From Candidatus Nomurabacteria bacterium RIFCSPLOWO2_01_FULL_41_18 (GTDB taxonomy: Bacteria > Patescibacteriota > Minisyncoccia > Phycocordibacterales > UBA9973): a stretch of 64,000 nt of DNA. Made by a program: the position numbers and the translations under genes. The stretch lies in NCBI GenBank assembly GCA_001785865.1, contig MFUZ01000006.1, forward strand, positions 111,307-175,306. Reading direction: 5' to 3'. This document shows positions 1 to 59,806 of this stretch, piece by piece. Under the pieces are notes generated by a model. The model saw only the letters and a program-made list of their open reading frames with translations. It did not search any database and had not been told where the DNA came from. How positions within the stretch are numbered: position 1 is the first letter of the stretch; every line of letters begins with the position of its first letter.

Positions 1-1731
1 AAGCTCAAGAATATCGTTCTGGAAGCCTGTATAGCCGTCCACATGGGTTGTCCAACTATCTGTGGTTGAATATTCTGCATCAGCTGGATTTGCTCCATTT
101 TGATTGAGCCAAGTACCGACTGCTTCAGCTATATAAGAAATTCCAGTAATAAGAGGATTTGAATTTACACCTCCTGATACGTTTGAAGGAACGCTTAGAT
201 CATTTTGCACTGCGTCTCCTTTTAGCATCAGGGTCCATCCAGAAAGAGGTTGCTGTTCATCATCTACTTTACACATTGTTACAGTTGAAGTTTGTGGTTC
301 CTCATTTTGAGGAGTTTCTTTTAGAACATTGAATCCGACGCAGTGATAAGTTTCTCCTTCGACAGTATCAATAAATTCCCAGTTGTCGTAATTCAATACG
401 TCACTGCCACAATAAAATTCTGCAGAGACATCTTGAGTTGTATTTTGTCCGGTAAATGGGATGTAATTATCGCTCGGTATCTCACGGAACCAAATTTTTT
501 CTCCGGCAGGAATTTCTTCAGTCTCACCAGAAGAAAAAGTCGTCCAGTCTCCGGAATCGGCATCAGAGTTGCCATCTCCAGGGTTACCTACTCCGTCCTC
601 TGACCATTGGAAATCCCATTCTACTAAATGACAAGTAGGATGAGCTGCAACATATCTATCTGCAGTATTTGATGTAACTTCTTGTAGCGTAGAGTCCCCT
701 GCTCCCCAATTTGGAAGATCTGTTTCGCTGTCGCAAACAATCTTTTTAGCTGAAATTGAGGATTTTTCTGGTCCAGGTTCATTATTACCATCGAACGTAT
801 TTGTCATGGTGCATTTCTTGACCGAACCTGGGGTGAGATCAATCCTATTACCACTATCAAAGTAAGAAAGACCCGAGATAGCCTCGCATTCCCACTCAGC
901 GTCGGCTGTATATCCCGCAGGGCCGCCAATTTCAGATAGAAGATATTTTCCTGCTTTTACGGTCTCCGTAAATCCTCCAGCTCCTTGGTAGACTATCGAA
1001 CTATCATTTTCATAGGTTGCCTTAAGTGTCCATTCGGTAGGATCTGCTTCACCTACCACTTCTTTAACTAAAGTTAGTGTTGCTGTGTCTCCTGTTGGTT
1101 CTGCATTTACTGTAATTTGCACGGTGTCTTGAGCACTGGTTGCTTCTTCGTCGTCAGTGACCACAAGTCCAAATACATAAACCCCTACCTCTAAGGAAGA
1201 TATGCCAGGGCTGGTTGTATTTGTCGGATCAATATTAGTAGGACCTGAAATAAAAGTCCAATTATAATTTGTTATGTAACCGTCTGAGTCGGTACTGCCT
1301 GATCCGACGAGAGTCGTGAAGTCAGTCGGAAGAGTTATTGTCTCATCATCACCAGCATCTGCCACTGGAGGGATATTTTCTTGAGTAATTCCTCCATCAC
1401 AATCTCCGTTTGCCCAGATTTCTTCATTTTCAGGAGTCCAGTTTCTTCCAGAAGAAGATTGTAAAACATTTTCATTATCAAGATAGTGAAATGGTGGAAT
1501 TATGTCATCTTCATGTTGTGCGCCATGACCATTTAAATCGCCAGTTGATGAGACATTTGGAGATATGCTTTCGTAACTCCCATTTCCTTTAGAGTGGCAA
1601 ATTTCTACACTAGTTTGAGCAGTTCCACCAAATGGATCATGATTTGCCAAAGCAACTGACGGACCGACTGTACTAAACAACATTGCAAATATCACAAGAC
1701 TTGAAGCGAACTTAGATAAAATATTTTTCAT
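1..1731 (-). CDS. Secreted protein with signal peptide and PKD-like repeat. Only the N-terminal 577 aa lie in the window; the ORF runs off the window start.
   Basis: Reverse-strand ATG at 1729-1731 gives MKNILSKFASSLVIFAMLFSTVGPSVALA..., a signal peptide. Read by eye, the frame is open to position 1. A segment 'ITNYNWTFISGPTNIDP...GVYVFGLVVTDDEEATSAQDTVQITV' is PKD-like. The ORF is absent from the track because it has no stop inside the window. Confidence 0.5.
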   Translation of the reverse strand, partial: MKNILSKFASSLVIFAMLFSTVGPSVALANHDPFGGTAQTSVEICHSKGNGSYESISPNVSSTGDLNGHGAQHEDDIIPPFHYLDNENVLQSSSGRNWTPENEEIWANGDCDGGITQENIPPVADAGDDETITLPTDFTTLVGSGSTDSDGYITNYNWTFISGPTNIDPTNTTSPGISSLEVGVYVFGLVVTDDEEATSAQDTVQITVNAEPTGDTATLTLVKEVVGEADPTEWTLKATYENDSSIVYQGAGGFTETVKAGKYLLSEIGGPAGYTADAEWECEAISGLSYFDSGNRIDLTPGSVKKCTMTNTFDGNNEPGPEKSSISAKKIVCDSETDLPNWGAGDSTLQEVTSNTADRYVAAHPTCHLVEWDFQWSEDGVGNPGDGNSDADSGDWTTFSSGETEEIPAGEKIWFREIPSDNYIPFTGQNTTQDVSAEFYCGSDVLNYDNWEFIDTVEGETYHCVGFNVLKETPQNEEPQTSTVTMCKVDDEQQPLSGWTLMLKGDAVQNDLSVPSNVSGGVNSNPLITGISYIAEAVGTWLNQNGANPADAEYSTTDSWTTHVDGYTGFQNDILEL

Positions 1732-2038
1732 AAAAATTATAATTTACTTCTTTTAATAATCAGATTGTTGACCTTTTTAGACTTTTAATGAAAACAAACT
1801 TTCAAAACTAATAATAAAATAACATACCTAAAGAATCAACACAAATTTACTTACGCAACCACCCTACCATAATACATAAAGAATGTCAATATGGTTGTGC
1901 ATAAAATGTGGATACAGAGTTTACGCAAAAAAAAGAAATTTCTGTATATATATGACGTAGTAAATTACGAATTATTACACGATGCAAAAATTTACAGTTC
2001 AGCCGGGTTGACCTTGGAAACAACAAAAAATCCGTCAT

Positions 2039-2067
2039 TTGCAATTTACTTTTTTTACCATTATAAT
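2039..2067 (+). promoter_or_regulatory. Candidate sigma70-type promoter for pilB: TTGCAA, 17-nt spacer, TATAAT.
   Basis: ttgcaa at 2039-2044 and tataat at 2062-2067 with a 17-nt spacer, about 60 nt upstream of the pilB ATG at 2129. Confidence 0.35.
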
Positions 2068-2128
2068 GTGAAATTACATTTAATAATTATTCAAAAATAT
2101 TTCTAGATAAAATAATTTTGCTTCGTAT

Positions 2129-3382
2129 ATGACAACAGCAGAAAAAAAATTAGATAAAGTCGAACAAGAACTTGCCCGTCCCGACATCTCGATCATCAAT
2201 CTTTTTGACCAGCTCATCGAAAAAGCTTACGAAGCGCGGGCATCCGATATCCACGTCGATCCCCTGGTAAATTCCGTACGCATCCGCTTTCGAATCGACG
2301 GCGTGCTCACCGAAGCATATTCATTTCCGAAATCTATAAACAATGAGATAATTTCCCGCGTTAAAATATTGTCCCGACTGCGCACCGACGAGCATCAGGC
2401 CACCCAAGACGGCAGATTCCGCTATATTCTTCCCGAGAACGAGAGGAATCAGAATGGAGAAAAAAATAAATTTATAGATTTTCGCGTATCGATCATGCCT
2501 ACCTACCACGGAGAAAATGCTGTGCTTCGCCTTTTGACGGACAAGAACGAGCAATCCTCTCTGGAAGATCTCGGTTTCAGTGAAATTGATAAGAAAAAAA
2601 TAGAGACGGCGATGAAAAAGACTAACGGCATGATCCTTTCGACTGGGCCGACTGGTAGCGGCAAGACCACTACCATGTACACTCTCATCAAGATGTTGAA
2701 ATCTCCGGAAGTTTCGATAATAACCATCGAGGACCCGATCGAATACGCCGTCGAAGACATAGAGCAGATACAGGTCAATGCCCGAGCCGGTCTTACCTTT
2801 GCAAACGGCCTCCGCTCCATTCTCCGCCAGGACCCGAATATCATCATGGTGGGCGAGATCCGTGATACCGAGACGGCGAGCATAGCCGTGAATACAGCGC
2901 TGACTGGACACCTCCTTCTCTCTACCTTGCATACAAACGATGCTGCGACTACCCTGCCTCGCCTTCTAGATATGGGCATCGAGGAATACCTCGTCGCTTC
3001 CACTGTCTCTCTCGCGATCGGACAGCGTCTGGTGAGAAAAATTTGCAGCCACTGCAAGGAAGAAGTGCAGATGACGCATGCGATGAAAGAAGCCCTCGCG
3101 CAGACTTCGTATACGGCGCTCCTCCTCAATGTCGACGTAGTCTACAAAGGAAAGGGCTGTGAAAAATGCAATAATAGTGGATATCGAGGGAGGATCTGTA
3201 TCAACGAAGTTCTAGTGGCGGACAATGAGATACGTGAAGCCATATTGCGCAGAGCTTCCGCCAATGAAATAAAGAAAATAGCCGTCAAAAACGGGATGAC
3301 TACGATGTTCGAAGATGGCTTTCAAAAAGTGAAGGACGGGTTCACAACTGTCGAAGAGGTATTAAGAGTTATTCATGAATAA
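2129..3382 (+). CDS. pilB: Type IV pilus assembly ATPase PilB/GspE family. Short form that lacks the N1 domain.
   Basis: Walker A motif GPTGSGKTTT. Asp/His boxes are present. A tetracysteine motif (CSHCK...CEKCNNSGYRGR) is typical of PilB/GspE rather than PilT. The N-terminus starts at the 'ASDIHV' N2 region. Confidence 0.85.
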   Translation: MTTAEKKLDKVEQELARPDISIINLFDQLIEKAYEARASDIHVDPLVNSVRIRFRIDGVLTEAYSFPKSINNEIISRVKILSRLRTDEHQATQDGRFRYILPENERNQNGEKNKFIDFRVSIMPTYHGENAVLRLLTDKNEQSSLEDLGFSEIDKKKIETAMKKTNGMILSTGPTGSGKTTTMYTLIKMLKSPEVSIITIEDPIEYAVEDIEQIQVNARAGLTFANGLRSILRQDPNIIMVGEIRDTETASIAVNTALTGHLLLSTLHTNDAATTLPRLLDMGIEEYLVASTVSLAIGQRLVRKICSHCKEEVQMTHAMKEALAQTSYTALLLNVDVVYKGKGCEKCNNSGYRGRICINEVLVADNEIREAILRRASANEIKKIAVKNGMTTMFEDGFQKVKDGFTTVEEVLRVIHE

Positions 3383-4907
3383 AAAAATGGCTACAAAAAC
3401 AACGACAATCAAAAAAACTAGAAAGATGTCGGATGTGACCATGCGTCCGCGGAAAAAGAAAACTCCGGAAGTTGCGGAAGTGGAAATAGTAGTAGAACAA
3501 GAAATCACCACCCCGGCTGCTGCCACTCCTCCTCCACAAGGAGGGGAAGAAAAATTGATAAAATTTGAAACCGAAGTTGTAAATCCGGAAACTCCATTAG
3601 AGCCGACGTTCATCAAAGGTGACGAACTGCCTCAAACGGGCCAAGTCGAAGAAATAAAGAAAGAAACAGCGCCAAGCAATAAATTTATAAATAATATCAA
3701 AAGCTTTTCATTTTCCATGCCTGCGCTTCCCTCAATGCCATCCTTTAAGGTCAAGAAATTTTTCACAAATAAAGAGGAGATAGAAAAAATTGCGCCAAAA
3801 GATACAAAAGCGAGACCGGGTAATAGTTTTTTTACTAGCTTAAAGAGCCTTAATTTCACGCGTCTGTCCATAAAGGATCAGACCTTTTTTGTCAAAAGGC
3901 TGTCTTTTCTCATCAAAGCCGGCATACCGATGGGAGAAAGTCTGGTCATGATCCGCACCCAGACCAAGAAACGGGGTTATGCTTCCATCCTTGACTCCGT
4001 AATCTCGAATGTGATGAACGGACAGAGACTCTCCTCGAGCCTCGCCCGTTTCAAGCACATCTTTGGGGATTTCACGATCAATATTATCGAGTTCGGAGAG
4101 GAGTCCGGCATACTTTCTCAAAATTTGGAGTACATAGCCGACGAATTAAAAAAAAGACAGGCTTTGCGCAAGAAAATAATTAGCGCATCTATATATCCGA
4201 TCATAGTCACGATCGCAACCATCGGCATTGTGATATTTCTAATGGTATTTCTTTTCCCGAAAATCATGCCGATATTTACGAGCCTCAAGTATGACCTTCC
4301 GCTCACTACCAGGATGGTCATAGCAATCAGTAATTTCTTCAGCCAATGGGGCCTTCTCACTTTCGGCATTCTTTTTATTCTTGGCGTAGCCTTCATCATC
4401 ACTCTCAAGAAAAGCCCGACTGTTCACTTCTATTTCGACAAGTTCCTTCTCAAATTGCCGGTAATCGGGAAGATCATACGAGACTATAATATGGCAAACT
4501 TCACCCGCACCATGGGCCTCCTGCTGCGAGGTGGCATCTCGATGAGTGAGGCCTTGCCTATCTCGGCGAAGACTACTCCGAATCTTGTCTATAAAAAAGA
4601 ATTTAAGGCACTCGGGGCTGTGGTCTCTCGTGGGGCGGTAATATCCACTCACTTGAACAAGAATCGCCATCTATTCCCTGACTTGGTCTCACAGATAGTT
4701 TCTGTCGGAGAACACAGCGGAAATTTGTCCAACTCCCTCATTTATCTTTCGGAAATGTATGAAGCAGAAATAGATGACTTCACAAAGAATTTATCCAGCA
4801 TGGTAGAGCCAGTCTTAATGATAATCATGGGTATCCTCGTGGGCTTTATAGCCATTTCCATCATCACGCCTATATACGGCATTACTCAGCACCTAAATGT
4901 AAAATAA
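3375..4907 (+). CDS. pilC: Type IV pilus inner-membrane platform protein PilC/GspF. It carries a Pro/Glu/Lys-rich N-terminal extension of about 150 aa.
   Basis: Two T2SSF-like repeats with TM segments follow a low-complexity N-terminus. There is an 8-nt overlap with pilB. Confidence 0.85.
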   Translation: MNKKMATKTTTIKKTRKMSDVTMRPRKKKTPEVAEVEIVVEQEITTPAAATPPPQGGEEKLIKFETEVVNPETPLEPTFIKGDELPQTGQVEEIKKETAPSNKFINNIKSFSFSMPALPSMPSFKVKKFFTNKEEIEKIAPKDTKARPGNSFFTSLKSLNFTRLSIKDQTFFVKRLSFLIKAGIPMGESLVMIRTQTKKRGYASILDSVISNVMNGQRLSSSLARFKHIFGDFTINIIEFGEESGILSQNLEYIADELKKRQALRKKIISASIYPIIVTIATIGIVIFLMVFLFPKIMPIFTSLKYDLPLTTRMVIAISNFFSQWGLLTFGILFILGVAFIITLKKSPTVHFYFDKFLLKLPVIGKIIRDYNMANFTRTMGLLLRGGISMSEALPISAKTTPNLVYKKEFKALGAVVSRGAVISTHLNKNRHLFPDLVSQIVSVGEHSGNLSNSLIYLSEMYEAEIDDFTKNLSSMVEPVLMIIMGILVGFIAISIITPIYGITQHLNVK

Positions 4908-4911
4908 TCAG

Positions 4912-5388
4912 ATGAGTAAACTATTTAAAACAAACCAAGGCATGACTCTCGTAGAAATAATGGTGGTGATCGGAGTGCTGATGATCATCCTCGCTTTTGG
5001 CATGACAGTAAATTTCAACTCATTCACTTCCAGTACTCTGCAGGCCGAGGAAGCGAAGATAGTCAGCGCCCTCGAACGAGCGCGCAGTCATGCGATGGCG
5101 AATATGTTTGAATCGGAATATGGAGTTTGTTATATTTCACCCAACTATGTTATTTTTCGTGAAAGCGAAGGAACTTGCAACAATTCTGAACCAACTAATG
5201 AGCTTATTCCTGCAAATACAAACTTGTCTACGTTATCAAATTTTTCTACAAACTTTGACGATTCCCACGCTATTATTTTCAATCAGCTCTCAGGTAATAG
5301 AAACACAGTAGATGATACAATTATTATTACTGACGGAATAAAGTCAGAGCCCATAGAAATAAACGATACAGGCAGAATCAATTGGTGA
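4912..5388 (+). CDS. Prepilin-type N-terminal cleavage/methylation domain protein (pseudopilin or minor pilin).
   Basis: N-terminal 'KTNQG/MTLVEIMVVIGVLMIIL' is a class III signal with Glu at +5. Confidence 0.6.
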   Translation: MSKLFKTNQGMTLVEIMVVIGVLMIILAFGMTVNFNSFTSSTLQAEEAKIVSALERARSHAMANMFESEYGVCYISPNYVIFRESEGTCNNSEPTNELIPANTNLSTLSNFSTNFDDSHAIIFNQLSGNRNTVDDTIIITDGIKSEPIEINDTGRINW

Positions 5389-5441
5389 AATTTTAATAAA
5401 TTTCACCCTGAGTTTATCGAAGGGTAATAAAAAATGAGGTT

Positions 5442-6953
5442 ATGAAAAATAAAATTAATTTTAAAAAAATGAAATCAAAAAGTGATAAAGGATTTGCGAC
5501 GATAGAGATCGTCATGGCTTTTGCGGTGCTCATTTTGTGTATCAGCGCAGTCGCTATGGTGACCTTCGGCAATCAGACACTTACGATAGATTCCGAGACC
5601 AACAATGAAGCGATTTCAAAAGCTCAAGCATTGATCGAGAAAGCAAGAGCGGATTCGAGAGAGGATTACGTTTCTGTAAATACTATTCCTTCAACTGTTG
5701 AGGATATTTATACAAAGTTTTTAGAAATAACAGATCTTACTCAATGTAATAAACAAGCTAAAAGCACAGTTTCCTGGACTACGGGATCAAGAAATCTTTC
5801 CACCACTCTCTCTACTTTTCTTAGCGACATTCCTGGAGCGCTAGCACTTGGTGGAGACTGTGATTCTGGTATTACTGCGGATTATGATAATCCTGGAGGT
5901 CTAGTAAGTGAATCTATCGGTGGACAAGGCGCTACAGCTTTGGATGCTGTAAATAACCGTCTATATGTGACTTCAAATAAATTTCCCCCCTCTCATAATA
6001 AAGATTTTTTTGTATATGATTTCAGTTTCAGTCCTCCATCGTCTAGCTCCCTTAGTTTAGTTGCTGAACTCGATTTAAATGAGGGCCTAAATGATGTAGA
6101 TGTGGCCGATAATTATGCGTATGTGGCAAGTGACTCACTTACTGGAGAATTACAGGTCATTGATCTTACTACAATGACTCAAATTCCTGGCGCAACCAGA
6201 CAATTACCAGAAACAAATACAGCTAAAGGAAGAAGAATATTTTTCTATGACAATAAAATCTATATAGGAACGGATTATCTATCATGTCCACCTCCATGTA
6301 CTCCGACACAAAACAGTGAATTTCACATTTATGATGTATCTACTCCAAGTGACCCGAATTGGGAAGGGAGTGTGAATATAAACCACAACGTAAATGATAT
6401 TTTTGTGTCAGGAGATTTTGCTTATCTAGCCACTTCTGATAATAATCACGAACTTATGGTTATAAATATTAATCCTTCTAGTCCTGATTATTTGGAACAT
6501 CCGGACGACACAGGTTTTGGTTATAATGCTTCGGGAAACAATGATGGTTCGAGCATTTATGCATTGGGGAATAAAATTTATCTTGGTAGAAAACAAAACA
6601 ATAATCCATCATCTGCTCATGATTTATTCGTGTTAAATAAGGACAGTGTTCAGGATGGGGCAAGCACGACTGACGGTCTCGTGATCTCTAGGGATCTAGG
6701 TATTTCGAATAACTCATTAGTTACTGGTATTGTTGTGCGAAGCAATTTGGCTTTTGTTGGTCTAGATAACCCAACTATCGGGGTTCTTGTTTTGAATATA
6801 AATACTTTACTGCCGTATTCTTCTTGTGCTGGATACAATTTCCCAGAGAATAGTACTGGGATAGATATGAGCGGAAATTTCATATTTACTTCAAACAGAT
6901 CAAATGATGAAATTCAAGTTATATACGATCAACCTTCAGCATGTACTCCATAA
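5442..6953 (+). CDS. Pilin-like protein: a prepilin N-terminus fused to a YVTN/LVIVD-type beta-propeller repeat domain. Putative pilus-associated adhesin.
   Basis: N-terminal 'KG/FATIEIVMAFAVLIL' with E+5. The C-terminal two-thirds contain about seven repeats of the form [N/D]xxY[VLI]xxxD...L.VI[DN] (NRLYVTSN, NYAYVASD..LQVIDL, DFAYLATSD..LMVININ, SNLAFVGLD..VLVLNIN, GNFIFTSN..IQVIY). Confidence 0.55.
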   Translation: MKNKINFKKMKSKSDKGFATIEIVMAFAVLILCISAVAMVTFGNQTLTIDSETNNEAISKAQALIEKARADSREDYVSVNTIPSTVEDIYTKFLEITDLTQCNKQAKSTVSWTTGSRNLSTTLSTFLSDIPGALALGGDCDSGITADYDNPGGLVSESIGGQGATALDAVNNRLYVTSNKFPPSHNKDFFVYDFSFSPPSSSSLSLVAELDLNEGLNDVDVADNYAYVASDSLTGELQVIDLTTMTQIPGATRQLPETNTAKGRRIFFYDNKIYIGTDYLSCPPPCTPTQNSEFHIYDVSTPSDPNWEGSVNINHNVNDIFVSGDFAYLATSDNNHELMVININPSSPDYLEHPDDTGFGYNASGNNDGSSIYALGNKIYLGRKQNNNPSSAHDLFVLNKDSVQDGASTTDGLVISRDLGISNNSLVTGIVVRSNLAFVGLDNPTIGVLVLNINTLLPYSSCAGYNFPENSTGIDMSGNFIFTSNRSNDEIQVIYDQPSACTP

Positions 6954-42100: not shown

Positions 42101-43139
42101 TAGTTTTTAAAGCGCTTACTGGAATCGTAACTTGTTTCCAATTTGTATTTAGAGTGCCACCTTGGATATAAGAATTTAAATTTACAGTGGAACTTTCTGC
42201 ATAGCCACTATTCCCTGCCCATGTCCAAAATGTGACCGTAACAGGATCTGTATTTGCTGTCGCACTTCGAATCATAAATGTTAGAGTCTCATAAAGTCCG
42301 AGATCTGTACGCTGACGATTGCCACAGTAAATTTTTAGCGAAGGAGTATGCCAAGGATCTGGTGTGAGTTTGAGTGAGGGTGAATCATTTATGCCTTGAT
42401 TACTAACTTGGGCTAAATATTCAGAACAGGATGATGAAAGAGGAGAAGAACTGCCATTAAAAATAGTCAATGTGGACGTGGGGGTAGTAGGTACTACGAC
42501 AGGAGGAGTAACGGCTTGTTCAATTTTGGGTTGGAAAATAATGTTGTCTATATAATAAATAGAATTGGAGGCACTTACAGAAAAACTGACAGCATCGGCA
42601 TTGGAAAGATCCCAAGAAGATATTTTTAAAGCGGATATTGGTATGGTTACTTGCTTCCAATCAGTACCAATTGAACCACCTTGAATATATTCATTGATGG
42701 AGACAGTTTTGCTATTTGCGTAACCATTTGGTCCAGCAAATGTCCAGAACGAGACATTTAGAGGGTCTGTGGTTGCCGTGGCACTTCGTATCATAAAAGT
42801 AAAATTCTCATATGCACCGAGATCTTTTCGTGGATTGTTCATACAATAAACTTTGAGCACTGGGGCATGCCACTTGTCTGGAATCAATTTAAGGCTGGTG
42901 GAGCCATTTACACCAGTTCCCTGTTCTTGTGTTGCATATTCGTAACACGAAGGACTTGGTGCAGGATTTGCATCTCCATCAAATAAAGTAAATGGAATCT
43001 GTGCAACCGAGGCTGTATAAGGAGAGCCATCTTTGAACCCTATATTATTCATTAATTTTGTATTAGTTATAACAACAAGAAAAATGAGAATAATAATTAT
43101 TATTCCGAAAGCAATATAGTATCGTAAATTTTTTTTCAT
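39150..43139 (-). CDS. Large secreted multi-domain glycoside hydrolase, GH9-like. Architecture is a signal anchor, then two tandem modules of about 170 aa, a Pro/Val-rich linker, a third module, an Ig-like domain, and a C-terminal (alpha/alpha)6 catalytic domain.
   Basis: N-terminal MKKNLRYYIAFGIIIIILIFLVV. Two roughly 50% identical repeats (…LKLIPDKWHAPVLKVYC… and …LKLTPDPWHTPSLKIYC…). A PPVV linker. A GH9 hallmark 'FDMTGGWYDAGDYGKY' and C-terminal acidic catalytic motifs. Confidence 0.8.
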   Translation of the reverse strand: MKKNLRYYIAFGIIIIILIFLVVITNTKLMNNIGFKDGSPYTASVAQIPFTLFDGDANPAPSPSCYEYATQEQGTGVNGSTSLKLIPDKWHAPVLKVYCMNNPRKDLGAYENFTFMIRSATATTDPLNVSFWTFAGPNGYANSKTVSINEYIQGGSIGTDWKQVTIPISALKISSWDLSNADAVSFSVSASNSIYYIDNIIFQPKIEQAVTPPVVVPTTPTSTLTIFNGSSSPLSSSCSEYLAQVSNQGINDSPSLKLTPDPWHTPSLKIYCGNRQRTDLGLYETLTFMIRSATANTDPVTVTFWTWAGNSGYAESSTVNLNSYIQGGTLNTNWKQVTIPVSALKTTSWNLSKVDGMRFSLSKSNSVYYVDDIVFHPTGATVPPPPPVVITPPVVVTPPVVVVPPVVIVPPSIIITPPIPPDPIRIDLEKQLKIWTGESAIERSTGITYGTVVSEGASSGTYSLKATPSQYNAGNLSLANLPTAYRKSLAQYDFIQMMVKVVPNPGTTLPAIPTGRFLIYGWPNTSASVKMEDYITGGGTLGASYRMLRIPVSALKVSGGFDLSSMENLWFSSASGVTPTYSFQIDDIYAIKTSPNTVLNLQPISNKVIKLTTKDRYDINGVVNASNYVLTGSGDSNFSSGRSPVQIGREFHVNGFEASTGGSYGLAKAPTFESNLYLVFDTPLVEGRNYTLTVKNIPDLFGNNFSTPKILPFTYSDAVITGSVQVNQVGYLPASPKFAYIGNYIGDAGSLTGVPAKCKVMNAASNTLVAEFPALFRANDISRSGNIIYNCDFSTITSAGSYYVSVPGFGRSYSFKIGSDIFKDVTKKLMNFYYAARADVPINYGEWSRPAGTLSSDRAAVLHPSVYVLSTDNPLPVSKIDYPLGTKFDMTGGWYDAGDYGKYILPASAPVNELLLAYELYPQKFSDNQADIPEKNNGIPDILDEIKYEIDWFQKMQTKDGGVFDRLTSQQWEKSPYDIQTRYLAPVSTHTTAVYAAVLAQASQVFKKNATFETKYPGYADNLLVKAVKAWDFLNKHPTPLPANGIDVRKLGIGGGDYQDKALSNCSDNQVPGSTCPYSDVDNRAWAAAELYKATGNVEYAQAFKTYWQQTSPFYNIYNNFVYHNSQASFAYLTTKYPTDPAIVTNIKSEYRSLADEEYNWTYSNPYRVGYRLDVPSYISWGQFAHSASRSFHLILANIILGDEKYLEAAKINFDVELGANPQNQSYITGIGSMPPKNPLHLTSIWLRQNSGATLPVPGIPVFGPSYHASNGNDYAATIQNNNNVYPSIEQDAYPILRRYFDLSAIVEQSEFGIGSIASILAAFAYFSK
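41880..41995. repeat. In-frame tandem DNA repeats encoding the (T/V)PPVV linker of the GH9-like protein.
   Basis: Repeated ggaggNacNacNacagg units were seen directly in the sequence. Confidence 0.5.
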
Positions 43140-54529: not shown

Positions 54530-55996
54530 ATGCCAGAGGTAAAAGAAATTTTAGACCTCATGGAGGTCAAAAATAAGAAGGATGAGGAGCTCATCACAAA
54601 AGCATATGAGTTTGCAAAAAGAGCGCATGAAGACCAAAAGAGAATGAGTGGGGATCCCTATTTTATCCATCCGGTAGAAACTGCAAAAATTCTGGCTTCC
54701 CTCGGAGTAGATGCGCAAACCATTGCGAGCGGGCTCCTACATGATGTTCTTGAAGACACCAAAACAACGGAAGAGGGACTAGAGAAAGAATTTGGCTCTG
54801 AAATACTTTTCCTGGTAAATGGCGTGACCAAGCTCGGAACCTTGAAATACAGGGGGCACCAAAGGCATGTGGAAAGCTTGCGGAAATTTTTTGTTGCAAT
54901 ATCTAGCGACCTTCGAGTAGTCATGATCAAATTCTCCGATCGACTGCACAATTTGAGAACATTACAGTTCTTAAACGAAGACAAGAGAAAAAGGATAGCT
55001 ATCGAATCGATCGAAGTGTATGCTCCGCTCGCAAACCGCCTCGGTATGTGGAAATTGAAAGGAGAAATGGAGGATGCGGCGTTTCCTTACGCATATCCGA
55101 AGGAATACGCCCAGATTGAAGAAATAATAAAGGACCACAAGGCATTGTACGATAAAAATCTTTCGGAAGTAAGAAGGGAGCTCGAAAAAGAATTTGTAAA
55201 GAACAAGATTAATATTGTAAAGATGAGCTACCGGATGAAGCACAAATATAGCTTGTGGAAAAAGCTCGTCAAGCGAGAGATGGATATAGAAAAAATAAAT
55301 GACATCGTCGCCCTGCGTGTGATCGTGGAAACTGTGGAAGAATGCTACCGGGTCTTGGGATTGATCCATTCGATTTGGAAGCCGCTTCCGGGCAGGATCA
55401 AAGACTTTATTGCCACCCCAAAGCCAAACGGATATCGTTCTATCCACACCACCGTCTTTACTGGCTCGGGCGGTATCGCAGAAATCCAGATCCGGACACG
55501 AGAAATGCACAAAGAAGCCGTCTATGGAGTAGCGGCCTACTTCGCTTACAAGGAACAGAACGGAGGTAAAAATTTGAACGAAAAGCTTAAATTAAAATGG
55601 CTTGAGGAGTTGAATGCCCTAAATTATCCCCCCGATGATCCGAATACGTTTACCGAAAAACTAAAAATGGATTTCTTTAATGATCGTATTTTTATTTTTA
55701 CTCCAGAGGGAGACGTGGTAGATCTGCCGGAAGGCTCGACTCCGATAGATTTCGCTTATTCCATTCACTCAGACATCGGAGACCACATTTCTGGTGCCAC
55801 TATTAATGGAAAAATGTCCCAAATATTTTCAAAATTAAAAAATAGAGATATCGTAAAAATTATTACAAAAAAAGACGCTCAACCCTCGAGCAAGTGGCTA
55901 AAATATGCCAAAACTACTCTCGCTCAAAAGCACATCAGGTCATATCTCGAAAAGAACAGCTTGCTTAAAAGACTCAGATCTTTTGGAAAAAAATAG
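54530..55996 (+). CDS. rel: Bifunctional (p)ppGpp synthetase/hydrolase of the Rel/SpoT family, short form (HD, synthetase and TGS domains, no ACT).
   Basis: HD motif (HPVETAKILASLGVD...LHDVLEDT), synthetase motif (RSIHTTV...), and a TGS domain. Confidence 0.85.
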   Translation: MPEVKEILDLMEVKNKKDEELITKAYEFAKRAHEDQKRMSGDPYFIHPVETAKILASLGVDAQTIASGLLHDVLEDTKTTEEGLEKEFGSEILFLVNGVTKLGTLKYRGHQRHVESLRKFFVAISSDLRVVMIKFSDRLHNLRTLQFLNEDKRKRIAIESIEVYAPLANRLGMWKLKGEMEDAAFPYAYPKEYAQIEEIIKDHKALYDKNLSEVRRELEKEFVKNKINIVKMSYRMKHKYSLWKKLVKREMDIEKINDIVALRVIVETVEECYRVLGLIHSIWKPLPGRIKDFIATPKPNGYRSIHTTVFTGSGGIAEIQIRTREMHKEAVYGVAAYFAYKEQNGGKNLNEKLKLKWLEELNALNYPPDDPNTFTEKLKMDFFNDRIFIFTPEGDVVDLPEGSTPIDFAYSIHSDIGDHISGATINGKMSQIFSKLKNRDIVKIITKKDAQPSSKWLKYAKTTLAQKHIRSYLEKNSLLKRLRSFGKK

Positions 55997-57089: not shown

Positions 57090-57173
57090 GCCGGGGTGGC
57101 GAAATTGGTAACCGCAATTGACTCAAAATCAATCGGGGGCAACCCCTTGGGAGTTCGAGTCTCCCCCCCGGCA
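57090..57173 (+). tRNA. tRNA-Leu (anticodon CAA), type II with a long variable arm. CCA is not encoded.
   Basis: Acceptor GCCGGGG/CCCCGGC, D-stem GCG/CGC, anticodon stem ATTGA/TCAAT with loop CTCAAAA, variable arm CGGGGGCAACCCC, T-arm GGGAG-TTCGAGT-CTCCC. Confidence 0.8.
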
Positions 57174-57248
57174 CAAAAGCCTGCCCCGTACTGAGCTCTG
57201 CTCTAGTACGGGGTTATCCACATCCGCCAAAGGCGGACAAGCTTGCAT

Positions 57249-57266
57249 TATCTCATATATGAGATA
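57249..57266. promoter_or_regulatory. Perfect 18-bp palindrome (TATCTCATATATGAGATA). Candidate operator for the downstream HTH-MurA protein.
   Basis: Seen directly in the sequence. It ends 13 nt upstream of the proposed ATG at 57279 and overlaps a TATAT -10-like element. Confidence 0.4.
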
Positions 57267-57278
57267 TACTATGGAAAT

Positions 57279-58814
57279 ATGAAAAAAACGTCAACAAAGG
57301 AAACAGAGACCGAGCAGGAAAAGATCGGCTTTTTTATAAAAGAGCTTCGTGAACATCGTGGGATGACGCAGGAACAGTTTGCTAAAGCACTCAATACTTC
57401 TCAAAGCTCAATCCCCCGTATGGAAAAGGGTGAGCAAAATTTTACTACGGAATTACTTCTTAAAATAAGTAACGTTCTAGACCACAAAATAGTTTCTTTA
57501 AATGATTCAATTGATTTTGAAGTCACTGGAGGAAAAAAATTAAGCGGAACCATAAAAACCAATTTTTCAAAAAACGGCTCAGTTGGACTTTTGTGCGCTT
57601 CGCTTGTAAATAGCGGAGTGACAACATTGCACGGCATTGCTCGCATTGAAGAAGTGTATAGAGTAATTGAAATTCTGGAAAGTATCGGAGTCGTTGTTAA
57701 ATGGCTTAACCAAAACACTCTCACAATTACTCCTCCTAAAAAATTTAGTTTGGACAATGTAAATACAGAATCTGCGATTAAAACTCGCTCAGTTATTATG
57801 CTTGTCGGACCTCTTATTCACAAATTGTCAGCTTTCATCATTCCTCACCCCCACGGATGCAACCTTGGTAAACGCACTATTGCAGCACATATTTTTGCAT
57901 TAGAAAAACTCGGGGTAAAAATAAAAACCACAGCAAAAAATTACGATGTTTCTGCAAGAAAACTCAAACCGGGATACATAGTAATGTATGAATCCGGAGA
58001 TACTGCTTGCGAAAATGTTTTAATGGCTTCTGCCCTGATTCATGGCGTGACAAGAATAAGTTTTGCTAGTGCAAATTATATGGTGCAAGAAGTTTGTTTT
58101 TTCCTTGAGGCTTTGGGTGTGAAAATAGAAGGAATCGGCACTTGCAACCTCACTGTTCATGGAGTAAAAGAAATAAACAAAGACATAGAATATTGGAACA
58201 GCGAAGACCCGATAGAATCCATGATGTTTATTTCTGCGGGAATTATTACTGACTCAAAACTCACCATAACTAGAGCTCCTATAGATTTCTTGGCTCTGGA
58301 ATTGGAAAAACTAAAGAGAATGAATTTAAAATATAAAATTTCAAAAGTTTATAATTCATTCAACGGCCGAACTAGACTCACTGATATAGAAATTTTCCCA
58401 AGCAAACTGAAAGCGTTAAAAGACAAACTTCATTCAAATCCTTATCCGGGAATAAATATAGACAATTTGCCATTTTTTGTACCGATTGCCATCCGGGCCA
58501 AAGGACAAACGATGGTTCATGATTGGGTATATGAAAACCGAGCCATATATTTGACCGAATTAAATCGCCTAGGAGCGGACATAACCCTCGCAGACCCTCA
58601 TCGTCTCTATATTACAGGCGGTACTCCCCTAAAAGGAGCCCAAATCGTCTGCCCTCCTGCGTTGCGACCATCTATGGTTATTCTTATTTCAATGCTTGGT
58701 GCTAGTGGCACATCAATACTCCGAAATGTCTATATGATAAATCGAGGCTATGAAGAAATTGTAGAAAGATTAAATTCCATCGGCGCGGATATTAAAATAA
58801 TAAAGGGGAATTAA
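57279..58814 (+). CDS. murA: XRE-family HTH domain fused to UDP-N-acetylglucosamine 1-carboxyvinyltransferase (MurA). The start is set at MKKTSTKE.
   Basis: The N-terminal about 70 aa, 'IGFFIKELREHRGMTQEQFAKALNTSQSSIPRMEKGEQNFTTELLLKISNVL', form a Cro/C1-type HTH. The rest aligns end-to-end with MurA (…FEVTGGKKLSGTIK…, active-site Cys in PHPHGCNLGKR, …RGYEEIVERLNSIGADIKI…). Confidence 0.7.
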   Translation: MKKTSTKETETEQEKIGFFIKELREHRGMTQEQFAKALNTSQSSIPRMEKGEQNFTTELLLKISNVLDHKIVSLNDSIDFEVTGGKKLSGTIKTNFSKNGSVGLLCASLVNSGVTTLHGIARIEEVYRVIEILESIGVVVKWLNQNTLTITPPKKFSLDNVNTESAIKTRSVIMLVGPLIHKLSAFIIPHPHGCNLGKRTIAAHIFALEKLGVKIKTTAKNYDVSARKLKPGYIVMYESGDTACENVLMASALIHGVTRISFASANYMVQEVCFFLEALGVKIEGIGTCNLTVHGVKEINKDIEYWNSEDPIESMMFISAGIITDSKLTITRAPIDFLALELEKLKRMNLKYKISKVYNSFNGRTRLTDIEIFPSKLKALKDKLHSNPYPGINIDNLPFFVPIAIRAKGQTMVHDWVYENRAIYLTELNRLGADITLADPHRLYITGGTPLKGAQIVCPPALRPSMVILISMLGASGTSILRNVYMINRGYEEIVERLNSIGADIKIIKGN

Positions 58815-59806
58815 TGCGCAAATTGAAAAATAACTTTTTGCGGGGTTTCGAGGCTGACGAGCCGAGAACTTCAGGATTTTTTAAGCTTAAAAAAATCCGT
58901 ACCAAAAAAAAGTTCATTTTTCAATCTGCGCCCACAATCATTGTTATCTTAGGTCAAACTGCTACAGGTAAAAGCAATTTGGCAGTAAAAATTGCCCTTC
59001 GGCTACGCTCTGGACCTTCGGCCCGAAAATATGGTGGTGAAATTATTTCTGCCGATTCAAGGCAAGTTTATAAAGGGCTTGATATAGGCACGGGTAAAAT
59101 TACTAAAAGAGAAATGAAGGGTGTTCCACATCATTTACTTGATGTAGTAAACCCAAAATACAAATTTACTGTTGCAGAATATAAGGAATTAGCTGAAGAA
59201 AAAATAAAAGAAATAATTGCTCGTGGTAAGACTCCAATAATCTGCGGAGGTACAGGATTTTATATTGATGCCGTCACCAAGGGCATAATTTTCCCCGAAG
59301 TGCCGCCAAACGTAAAACTTCGCAAACAACTTACTTCAAAATCTGCTATCGCATTATTTAAAGTATTAAAAAAGTTAGATTCAGAAAGATCCAAGACCAT
59401 AGACTCTAGAAATAAAGTCAGATTGATCCGAGCGATAGAAATAGCGAAAGCTCTAGGCAAAGTCCCAGAAATTACTGAGGTCTTGCCTCAATATAAATTT
59501 ATAAAAATTGGGTTATATCTCCCACCGGATAAATTAAAAAAGAAAGTAGAGAAAAGAGTCAAAAAAATGTTTGACAATGGCTTGTTGAAAGAAATTAAAA
59601 AAATAAAAAAGAGTGGAATGTCAAACAAAAGACTTCAAGAACTGGGTTTTGAATATTTTAATCCTACTTACGAAAAAGTTGTGAAAGGCACTTTACAATA
59701 TGCCAAACGCCAAATGACATGGTTTAAGCGTGATAAAGAAATAAAATGGTTTGATGCGTCAAAAGGACACACATTGACTATTTTAGGGAAAAGTATAAGA
59801 ATATAG
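58814..59806 (+). CDS. miaA: tRNA dimethylallyltransferase.
   Basis: P-loop 'IIVILGQTATGKSNLAVKIA' and a DSRQVYKGLDIGT motif. TAATG overlap with the upstream gene. Confidence 0.85.
   Translation: MRKLKNNFLRGFEADEPRTSGFFKLKKIRTKKKFIFQSAPTIIVILGQTATGKSNLAVKIALRLRSGPSARKYGGEIISADSRQVYKGLDIGTGKITKREMKGVPHHLLDVVNPKYKFTVAEYKELAEEKIKEIIARGKTPIICGGTGFYIDAVTKGIIFPEVPPNVKLRKQLTSKSAIALFKVLKKLDSERSKTIDSRNKVRLIRAIEIAKALGKVPEITEVLPQYKFIKIGLYLPPDKLKKKVEKRVKKMFDNGLLKEIKKIKKSGMSNKRLQELGFEYFNPTYEKVVKGTLQYAKRQMTWFKRDKEIKWFDASKGHTLTILGKSIRI

Follow-up and report, generated by a model that had tools for sequence, protein, structure and literature searches.

We analyzed a 64,000-nucleotide (nt) stretch of contig MFUZ01000006.1 from Candidatus Nomurabacteria bacterium RIFCSPLOWO2_01_FULL_41_18 (positions 111,307 to 175,306 of the forward strand; hereafter, the window), focusing on a gene that joins a predicted XRE-type helix-turn-helix (HTH) DNA-binding domain to MurA, the UDP-N-acetylglucosamine (UDP-GlcNAc) enolpyruvyl transferase. 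MurA is the entry point of peptidoglycan synthesis and the target of fosfomycin. A perfect 18-bp palindrome lies directly upstream of this gene, flanked by promoter-like hexamers, and the neighboring genes encode a tRNA-Leu and MiaA (Table 1). We propose that this protein, HTH-MurA, is most likely a MurA fused to a predicted DNA-binding domain that switches off its own gene through a promoter palindrome; in more than 80 species, palindrome and domain are conserved together.

Table 1. Positions of the features of the HTH-murA locus in the window and of related loci elsewhere (L numbers; positions are those within each locus).
Feature	Position	Strand	Details
HTH-MurA fusion gene	57279..58814	+	511 amino acids (aa); ATG 57279, TAA 58812-58814
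XRE/Cro-C1-type HTH domain	57336..57482	+	aa 20-68; recognition helix TSQSSIPRMEKGEQN
MurA domain	57516..58802	+	aa 80-508; Cys194 codon 57858-57860
18-bp perfect palindrome TATCTCATATATGAGATA, proposed operator	57249..57266	.	conserved in relatives; between hexamers
-35-like hexamer TTGCAT	57243..57248	+	TTGCAA or TTGACA in relatives; TTG conserved at fixed distance from palindrome (76 loci)
-10-like hexamer TATACT	57265..57270	+	TATAAT or TAAAAT in relatives; 8 nt before ATG
DnaA-box consensus TTATCCACA	57214..57222	+	just upstream of -35; only exact copy in window
Two stable hairpins (57183-57214 and 57223-57237)	57183..57237	+	between tRNA and promoter; -34.3 kcal/mol, z -6.2 (RNA fold)
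tRNA-Leu(CAA)	57090..57174	+	directly upstream; ARAGORN; Rfam tRNA 58.4 bits
miaA (tRNA isopentenyltransferase)	58814..59806	+	Pfam IPPT; ATG 58814 overlaps fusion TAA (TAATG)
L085 cluster	1124-4003		canonical murA-murB divergent; ddl and Mur ligase downstream
L211 cluster	95-5003		canonical murA, Mur ligase and 164-aa gene of unknown function divergent; Mur ligase downstream
L212 cluster	1504-5530		canonical murA-murB divergent; Mur ligase downstream
L213 cluster	1388-5467		murB and relA/spoT-type gene upstream; no canonical murA in locus
Small-XRE metagenome loci	L092, L104, L105, L111, L119, L120, L121, L136, L149, L151, L164		palindrome upstream

The fusion is encoded by a single open reading frame (ORF), with no stop codon or frameshift inside it in the sequence or its translation. 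Twelve contigs, assembled independently and drawn from several samples, encode an identical 511-aa protein, which has been deposited as OGI68511.1 (Candidatus Nomurabacteria), so the fusion is not an artefact of assembly or frameshifting. Its N-terminal region matches Pfam HTH_3 (aa 20-68; E 3.3e-14, 53.1 bits against a cutoff of 23), and two further Pfam HTH profiles exceed their cutoffs (HTH_31, 37.1 against 27 bits; HTH_19, 31.8 against 30.2 bits). In an AlphaFold2 monomer model of the whole protein (mean predicted local distance difference test score [pLDDT] 83.8), N-terminal helices precede the MurA body, and the HTH region forms four helices (residues 12-26, 31-37, 44-49 and 57-66) with block pLDDT values of 72-89. 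Within an alignment of 33 family members, the recognition-helix region is invariant at T40-S43 and R47-N54. An earlier note, made from the letters of this DNA alone, had proposed an XRE-type HTH at the N terminus, joined in frame to a full-length MurA; the profile matches, the modeled helices, the intact ORF and the 12 contigs all bear this out.

The remainder of the protein is MurA-like over its full length. Pfam EPSP_synthase (PF00275) matches aa 82-498 across all of its profile positions (1-417 of 417; E 3e-41, 141.9 bits against a cutoff of 22.8), and the NCBIfam MurA subfamily profile NF006873 scores 310.6 bits, above its cutoff of 297. All sequence matches in the PDB are to MurA (E down to 5e-53), each starting at query residue 79 or later, and no solved structure among them covers the HTH extension. 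A Foldseek comparison with MurA chains in the PDB recovers the two-domain inside-out alpha/beta barrel fold of this family (target template modeling score [TM] 0.83-0.90, E down to 5e-39), and structures of MurA bound to UDP-N-acetylmuramic acid (UDP-MurNAc) are among the matches. Cys194 aligns with Cys115 of the E. coli enzyme; the active-site Cys is retained, as the earlier note had stated. Equivalents of E. coli MurA K22, N23, R91, C115, R120, D305, R331, R371 and R397 are all kept in the window protein, and the corresponding residues (K98, N99, R170, C194, R199, D395, R421, R463 and R489) are invariant among the 33 family members. The E. coli numbering is that of a reference sequence whose internal consistency was checked: it has the expected length and, at each position named here, the expected type of residue. 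Compared with canonical MurA enzymes (those of E. coli and E. cloacae, and MurAA and MurAB of Firmicutes), HTH-MurA shares the fold and the catalytic Cys/Lys/Arg/Asp set, but its identity to E. coli MurA is only ~26-29% (the value varies with the method of alignment), it carries a 79-aa N-terminal HTH extension, and it has a Pro at the position of D369.

The fusion is not confined to this genome. Both Pfam domains are present in all of the best 120 database matches (79-100% identity), which public annotation names either MurA or "helix-turn-helix domain-containing protein." Scanning one genome per species, we found 358 relatives, so that the fusion proved widespread where the earlier note had left its presence in relatives to be checked; the loci studied with their flanks are the best 80 of these 358 (73-89% protein identity). 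A sensitive search of representatives clustered at 50% identity extended the fusions down to 32% identity (P0121, P0125, P0128, P0129, P0138, P0142, P0149, P0188 and P0225). Interleaved among them are proteins of the same MurA subfamily that have no HTH (P0122-P0124, P0130 and P0136).

The palindrome directly upstream of the gene is perfect over 18 bp, as the earlier note had described, and it ends 12 nt before the ATG rather than the 13 nt given there. No other site in the window matches TATCTCATATATGAGATA with three or fewer mismatches. The window itself does not establish that the palindrome is significant, and we rejected that argument: three perfect 18-bp palindromes occur in the 64 kb, where 0.43 would be expected, and at least one turns up in 31% of first-order Markov simulations. 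Its significance lies instead in conservation across species. The other two perfect palindromes are GAATAATAATTATTATTC (43088-43105) and TTTTTTAAGCTTAAAAAA (58877-58894), the latter within the 5' part of miaA.

The -35-like and -10-like hexamers are separated by a 16-bp spacer, which the palindrome fills, extending 2 nt into the -10-like hexamer. A consensus promoter scanner did not call this promoter, whose TTGCAT agrees with TTGACA at only three of six positions; our assignment rests on hexamer positions conserved among relatives. A palindrome within a promoter spacer occupies a typical repressor location and predicts repression. At 16 bp the spacer is not overlong, which makes activation in the manner of MerR unlikely. 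The start codon falls 9-13 nt past the operator end in 52 of 76 loci, approximately 7 nt after the -10 hexamer, leaving no room for a Shine-Dalgarno sequence. The fusion mRNA is thus probably leaderless or nearly so, as the 8-nt distance between the -10 hexamer and the ATG implies for the window. By extension, leaderless translation of HTH-murA is predicted for Paceibacteria-type genomes (window 57265-57281; the same 52 of 76 loci).

Conservation of the palindrome with the HTH provides the main evidence for an operator. Upstream of the fusion genes, in species-level loci whose intergenic DNA is otherwise unalignable, one motif recurs: TTGCAwT-TATmTCATATATGAkATA-TAmwT. Across 78 species-level loci (73-89% protein identity), a single copy of TATmTCATATATGAkATA with no more than one mismatch precedes the fusion gene wherever there is enough upstream DNA; L024 and L080 are cut by contig ends, and their upstream DNA is too short for the motif. 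An inserted gene places the motif ~590 nt upstream in three loci. The site and the fused HTH occur together in ~74 of 74 informative loci. In 76 aligned loci, the palindrome carries ~2 bits per position and is the only strongly conserved intergenic stretch, with the flanks near 0 bits except for the TTG of the -35-like hexamer and the -10-like TAnAAT. At operator positions 4 and 15, the symmetric pairs C..G and A..T are found in 16 loci each and the mixed pair A..G is the most common (30 loci); we claim no covariation there. Neither the 542 kb of flanks from relatives nor the window contains a second good copy of the operator, as a larger regulon would require.

The association extends to distant fusions. 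Those at 52%, 39%, 36% and 32% identity keep the site (L084, L085, L089 and L090), as do L211-L213, with site variants of zero to two mismatches. The promoter region of L085 reads TTGACA-at-ATATCATATATGATAT; in L090, ATATCAGATATGATAT is followed by aatac and the ATG; and in L089, the site heads an operon of NUDIX, nucleotidyltransferase and HTH-murA genes. L084, from a Nonomuraea genome of 70% GC, has ATCTCATATGTGAGAT 20 nt before the ATG. The protein cluster, with P0121 as its representative, numbers 246 sequences, and every named member among the 40 read belongs to this cultivated actinomycete genus. In Nonomuraea sp. NEAU-A123 (JAHFZZ010000002.1; site at L084 2473-2490) and in L165, the fusion has intact catalytic residues and the AT-rich operator. 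A phage-type integrase gene adjoins the Nonomuraea fusion gene. These features point to a horizontal exchange of the gene between Actinomycetota and Patescibacteria-like lineages.

Where the HTH is missing, so is the site. Two HTH-less orthologues (L055 and L061) share the parB/tRNA-Leu synteny, and their MurA is 87% identical, yet neither has the site. Two further HTH-less loci (L214 and L215) show no match within three mismatches in ~3 kb on each side (2.1-4.3 kb), and no site was found for P0125, whose HTH is degenerate. The HTH, promoter and operator are all absent from L061 (2890-2980) and L055 (1-75), in which murA starts 8-10 nt after tRNA-Leu and may be transcribed together with the tRNA.

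A metagenome-wide scan for exact copies of the motif, made without reference to MurA, returned at least 80 loci. Among the 80 listed, 20 have a correctly oriented HTH-MurA gene, which in 19 lies within 180 nt of the site, and 30 have a gene with a related HTH (E <= 1e-3) starting no more than 700 nt from the site, the 20 fusions included. Approximately 10 of the 80 instead encode small XRE proteins (85-129 aa) with a similar recognition helix, T[ST]QSN[IV]ARIE.G.QN (loci in Table 1). Five of these have a gap of ~365 nt between site and gene, room for another small gene to come first in the manner of toxin-antitoxin operons. The fusion may have acquired its HTH, operator included, from an antitoxin-like regulator of this kind. 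The closest HTH profile matches are to XRE-type antitoxins of type II systems (HigA and Y4mF/HipB-like; TIGR03070, E 1.8e-10), a group that autoregulates through promoter palindromes. We rejected a toxin-antitoxin function for the HTH itself: TIGR03070 scores 40.6 against a cutoff of 71.65 bits and HigA 23.5 against 47.7, no toxin partner is present, and the neighbors are tRNA-Leu, parB and miaA. A further distinction from the antitoxins is that the HTH is covalently joined to an enzyme.

Taken together, co-conservation, joint loss and the metagenomic association make a strong comparative case for recognition of this palindrome by HTHs of this type. The proposal of an operator was the weakest part of the earlier note when judged on one sequence, and it has gained support from conservation, from distant fusions, from the metagenomic loci and from the absence of the site where the HTH is missing. 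The interpretation given in that note, autoregulation by the enzyme itself, is supported overall, as each of its elements that could be checked held up.

A second group of distant relatives appears to have followed a different course. Seven representatives (P0128, P0129, P0138, P0142, P0149, P0188 and P0225) have an intact HTH and decayed catalytic residues. The C115 equivalent is I, K, P, G or N in these seven; the R120 equivalent is N, T, P, I, Q or a gap, with P0142 alone retaining the Arg; none of the seven has R91; and four or five of them lack R371, as four or five lack R397. Their HTH has stayed closer to that of the window protein (44-57% identity) than their MurA body has (29-41%). 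Several lie in clusters of peptidoglycan-precursor genes (Table 1), and in L085, L211 and L212 the operator sits inside the divergent intergenic region shared with these genes. The neighboring canonical MurA keeps the Cys and Arg; the names among its top 120 matches include Collierbacteria, WWE3 and the generic "Patescibacteria group bacterium," and one match is labeled Chloroflexi. The degenerate proteins are likely MurA-derived sensor repressors of peptidoglycan-precursor operons. In the clade of the window, all catalytic residues are kept and HTH-less orthologues occupy the same locus, which favors a bifunctional enzyme-repressor there.

Our preferred interpretation, to which we assign a probability of about 0.72, is that HTH-MurA is a bifunctional trigger enzyme, that is, an active MurA whose HTH represses its own, probably leaderless, promoter. 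The HTH would bind the 18-bp palindrome, most likely as a dimer, and the bound protein would block RNA polymerase at its own promoter, resulting in negative autoregulation of murA and, in this genome, of the co-transcribed miaA. The MurA body would probably serve as the sensor too, with its ligand state altering oligomerization or the geometry of the HTH and hence repression; candidate ligands are UDP-GlcNAc and phosphoenolpyruvate, through closure of the enzyme, or UDP-MurNAc, a tight-binding feedback ligand. Transcription of the first committed step of peptidoglycan synthesis would in this way be tied to precursor levels. In other lineages, the HTH-operator pair on a catalytically dead MurA paralogue beside a canonical murA would represent the pure-regulator end-state. 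We are evenly divided on a wider proposal, namely that these proteins form an undescribed family of MurA-derived transcription factors across Patescibacteria and Nonomuraea, in one branch of which the enzyme represses itself, and in another of which a catalytically dead, UDP-sugar-sensing protein represses murA, murB, ddl and mur-ligase operons.

This design has precedents. The term "trigger enzymes" was reportedly defined by Commichau and Stuelke. HTH-MurA combines a catalytic and a predicted DNA-binding domain in one polypeptide, and its predicted operator lies at its own promoter (~74 loci) or, in distant members, at divergent murA/murB or mur-ligase promoters. BirA consists of an N-terminal HTH and a biotin protein ligase and binds a palindromic operator of its own pathway, with ligand-controlled DNA binding via dimerization. 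HTH-MurA likewise carries an N-terminal HTH and an enzyme in one polypeptide, and the mechanism of BirA is the one we propose for it; BirA, however, has a winged HTH rather than one of the XRE type and belongs to another enzyme fold and pathway, and ligand control and dimerization are hypothetical for HTH-MurA. NadR joins an N-terminal HTH to NMN (nicotinamide mononucleotide) adenylyltransferase and ribosylnicotinamide kinase and represses genes of its own pathway. Some NadR orthologues are HTH-less, as are some of the MurAs described here, but its enzyme domains are unrelated and act in the NAD pathway; we compared the two sequences only via a general HTH profile. PutA, a proline dehydrogenase with a ribbon-helix-helix DNA-binding domain and redox- and membrane-dependent switching, shares with other trigger enzymes and with the proposed HTH-MurA the principle of an active enzyme doubling as regulator of its own gene, and differs in its DNA-binding fold. 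HTH-MurA would match the enzyme-repressor design of these proteins while lying outside their families, by virtue of its XRE-type HTH and its MurA enzyme.

Several observations weigh against this interpretation. The MurA half misses the equivalog-level MurA cutoffs (TIGR01072, 298.1 against 392.7 bits; NF009470, 205.9 against 552), and judged by its sequence it is a divergent subfamily. The equivalent of E. coli D369 is a Pro at residue 460 (nt 58656-58658; motif CPPALRPS), and this Pro is found throughout the fusion-type subfamily, HTH-less members included, with Asp in most canonical MurAs aligned. Because of this Pro and the missed TIGR01072 cutoff, full MurA activity of the fusion is plausible rather than proven. 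MurA enzymes are usually monomeric, and the model presented here is that of a monomer. We infer binding of the HTH to the site from co-occurrence only, and it is a matter of speculation which ligand acts and in which direction. No related HTH lies close to approximately 50 of the 80 metagenomic matches listed, which may reflect chance occurrence of an 18-mer rich in AT or use of the site by something else. Finally, we found no second MurA-like ORF in the window, to which the search was confined, and the genome may hold one elsewhere.

Such a second gene is central to one alternative, which we regard as unlikely: the protein may be mainly a transcription factor whose MurA-like body is only a ligand sensor, with the true MurA supplied from another gene elsewhere in the genome. 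Distant members of just this type exist, with catalytic residues lost and a canonical murA next door, and the Pro at the D369 position and the missed TIGR01072 cutoff would fit such a role for the window protein. The nine catalytic and substrate-binding residues (Cys115, Lys22, Arg120, Asp305 and Arg397 among them) are nevertheless invariant in the 33 members of its clade, and the same residues decay in the lineages proven to carry two copies. HTH-less orthologues with a MurA 87% identical at the same locus are as expected for a housekeeping enzyme, and the window, as noted, contains no second candidate. For the canonical type of MurA that accompanies the dead fusions, moreover, the names among the top 120 matches are those of Microgenomates, WWE3 and Collierbacteria, apart from the generic Patescibacteria and the one Chloroflexi label.

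It is more doubtful still that a different protein binds the palindrome, such as another XRE or antitoxin-like regulator or DnaA-associated machinery, leaving the fused HTH to make protein-protein contacts. RodZ offers a model for such contacts in cell-wall biology: its XRE-type HTH, which precedes a transmembrane segment, has MreB rather than DNA as its partner. The same palindrome also precedes stand-alone small XRE genes in metagenomes, so other proteins of this specificity exist, and a conserved DnaA box adjoins the site. Against this, ~74 of the 74 informative loci carry both site and HTH, as do distant fusions, and both are gone from four HTH-less orthologues; one further orthologue, whose HTH is degenerate, also lacks the site. 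The recognition helix does not vary, no stand-alone XRE gene regularly accompanies the loci, and the small XRE proteins found by the motif share its recognition-helix pattern, which speaks for recognition of the site by helices of this type. HTH-MurA resembles RodZ in bearing an XRE-type HTH on a protein of cell-wall synthesis, but its HTH runs straight into MurA, with a conserved palindrome upstream, and the MurA profile covers the rest of the protein from aa 80, in place of the transmembrane and periplasmic domains of RodZ.

Least probable, and in our view very improbable, is that the conserved sequence is a promoter only, without a dedicated regulator, in which the local RNA polymerase places unusual constraint on the spacer or discriminator and the dyad symmetry is incidental. 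It overlaps the -35/-10 region, is AT-rich like promoters, and belongs to a class of palindromes that arise by chance in the window. Promoter spacers, however, do not normally keep their sequence from one species to another; the motif, unlike a general promoter form, is found at no further gene in the window or the 542 kb of flanks; it survives in an actinomycete genome of 70% GC; and it is gone exactly where the HTH is absent, in genes that still need a promoter.

If an autorepressing HTH-MurA is confirmed, it would provide a direct transcriptional feedback loop on cell-wall precursor supply. Known control of MurA is post-translational, through feedback by UDP-MurNAc and, in Firmicutes, proteolysis by ClpCP/ReoM. 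To our knowledge, no cell-wall enzyme is among the trigger enzymes, and a full-text literature search found none; the same search found no description of an HTH-MurA fusion, which does not prove that none exists. A cell-wall enzyme would thus join the small enzyme-repressor class of BirA, NadR and PutA, and HTH-MurA would surprise cell-wall specialists. The catalytically dead relatives next to canonical murA genes hint that mur operons in Patescibacteria have a general regulator, and they would make the transition from enzyme to sensor traceable. We know of almost no transcription factor-operator pairs defined in Patescibacteria; this one would be among the first regulator-operator pairs defined in the Candidate Phyla Radiation. 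The presence of the fusion and a simple 18-mer operator in cultivable Nonomuraea offers an experimental system in which the hypothesis is directly testable.

The region upstream of the promoter contains additional features. A DnaA box is present in the 90 nt upstream of the operator as an exact copy in 18 of 75 relatives and with at most one mismatch in 49 of 75, against a background per 90 nt of 0.002 and 0.02, respectively. Eighteen of the 24 exact DnaA boxes in the 542 kb of flanks fall at this spot (L004-L083). This suggests an additional input to the murA promoter, from DnaA or some other factor, which may link cell-wall synthesis to replication. The two hairpins between the tRNA gene and the promoter are not conserved, the flanks differing among the loci of relatives, and they probably end the tRNA transcript. 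No known RNA element was detected in the leader; Rfam reports only the tRNA.

Relatives share a conserved order of parB (facing away), tRNA-Leu and HTH-murA (both in the forward direction). Downstream, miaA is probably co-transcribed with the fusion gene because its start codon overlaps the fusion's stop codon. The earlier note had described the two genes as translationally coupled: the overlap is present here, but miaA lies directly downstream in only 35 of 78 relatives. We therefore rejected miaA as a functional partner and regard the linkage as lineage synteny rather than a feature of the family.

Further observations concern the surroundings of the gene. A RelA/SpoT-family gene (HD_4, RelA_SpoT and TGS domains) is located two genes upstream of HTH-murA in the window (54530-55996, + strand), and a gene of this type also lies directly upstream of the degenerate HTH-MurA in L213 (2562-3983); this recurrence may be coincidence. 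The gene inserted between operator and HTH-murA in three species (L048, ~2290-2865; L059, ~705-1285; L053, ~2420-2980) is an AAA_33 P-loop kinase with a sub-threshold match to Zeta_toxin (E 0.0035) in L048 and L059 and a histidine phosphatase in L053. Zeta toxins phosphorylate UDP-GlcNAc, yielding a MurA inhibitor, and by analogy the inserted kinase may be functionally linked to MurA. In L043, L044, L046, L067 and L074, the gap between operator and start is 120-147 nt, with long terminal inverted repeats inserted in the leader, such as GGGCTCATATATTAAAATTTTAC ... GTAAAATTTCAATATATGAGCCC in L046; these insertions resemble miniature inverted-repeat elements or structured leaders.

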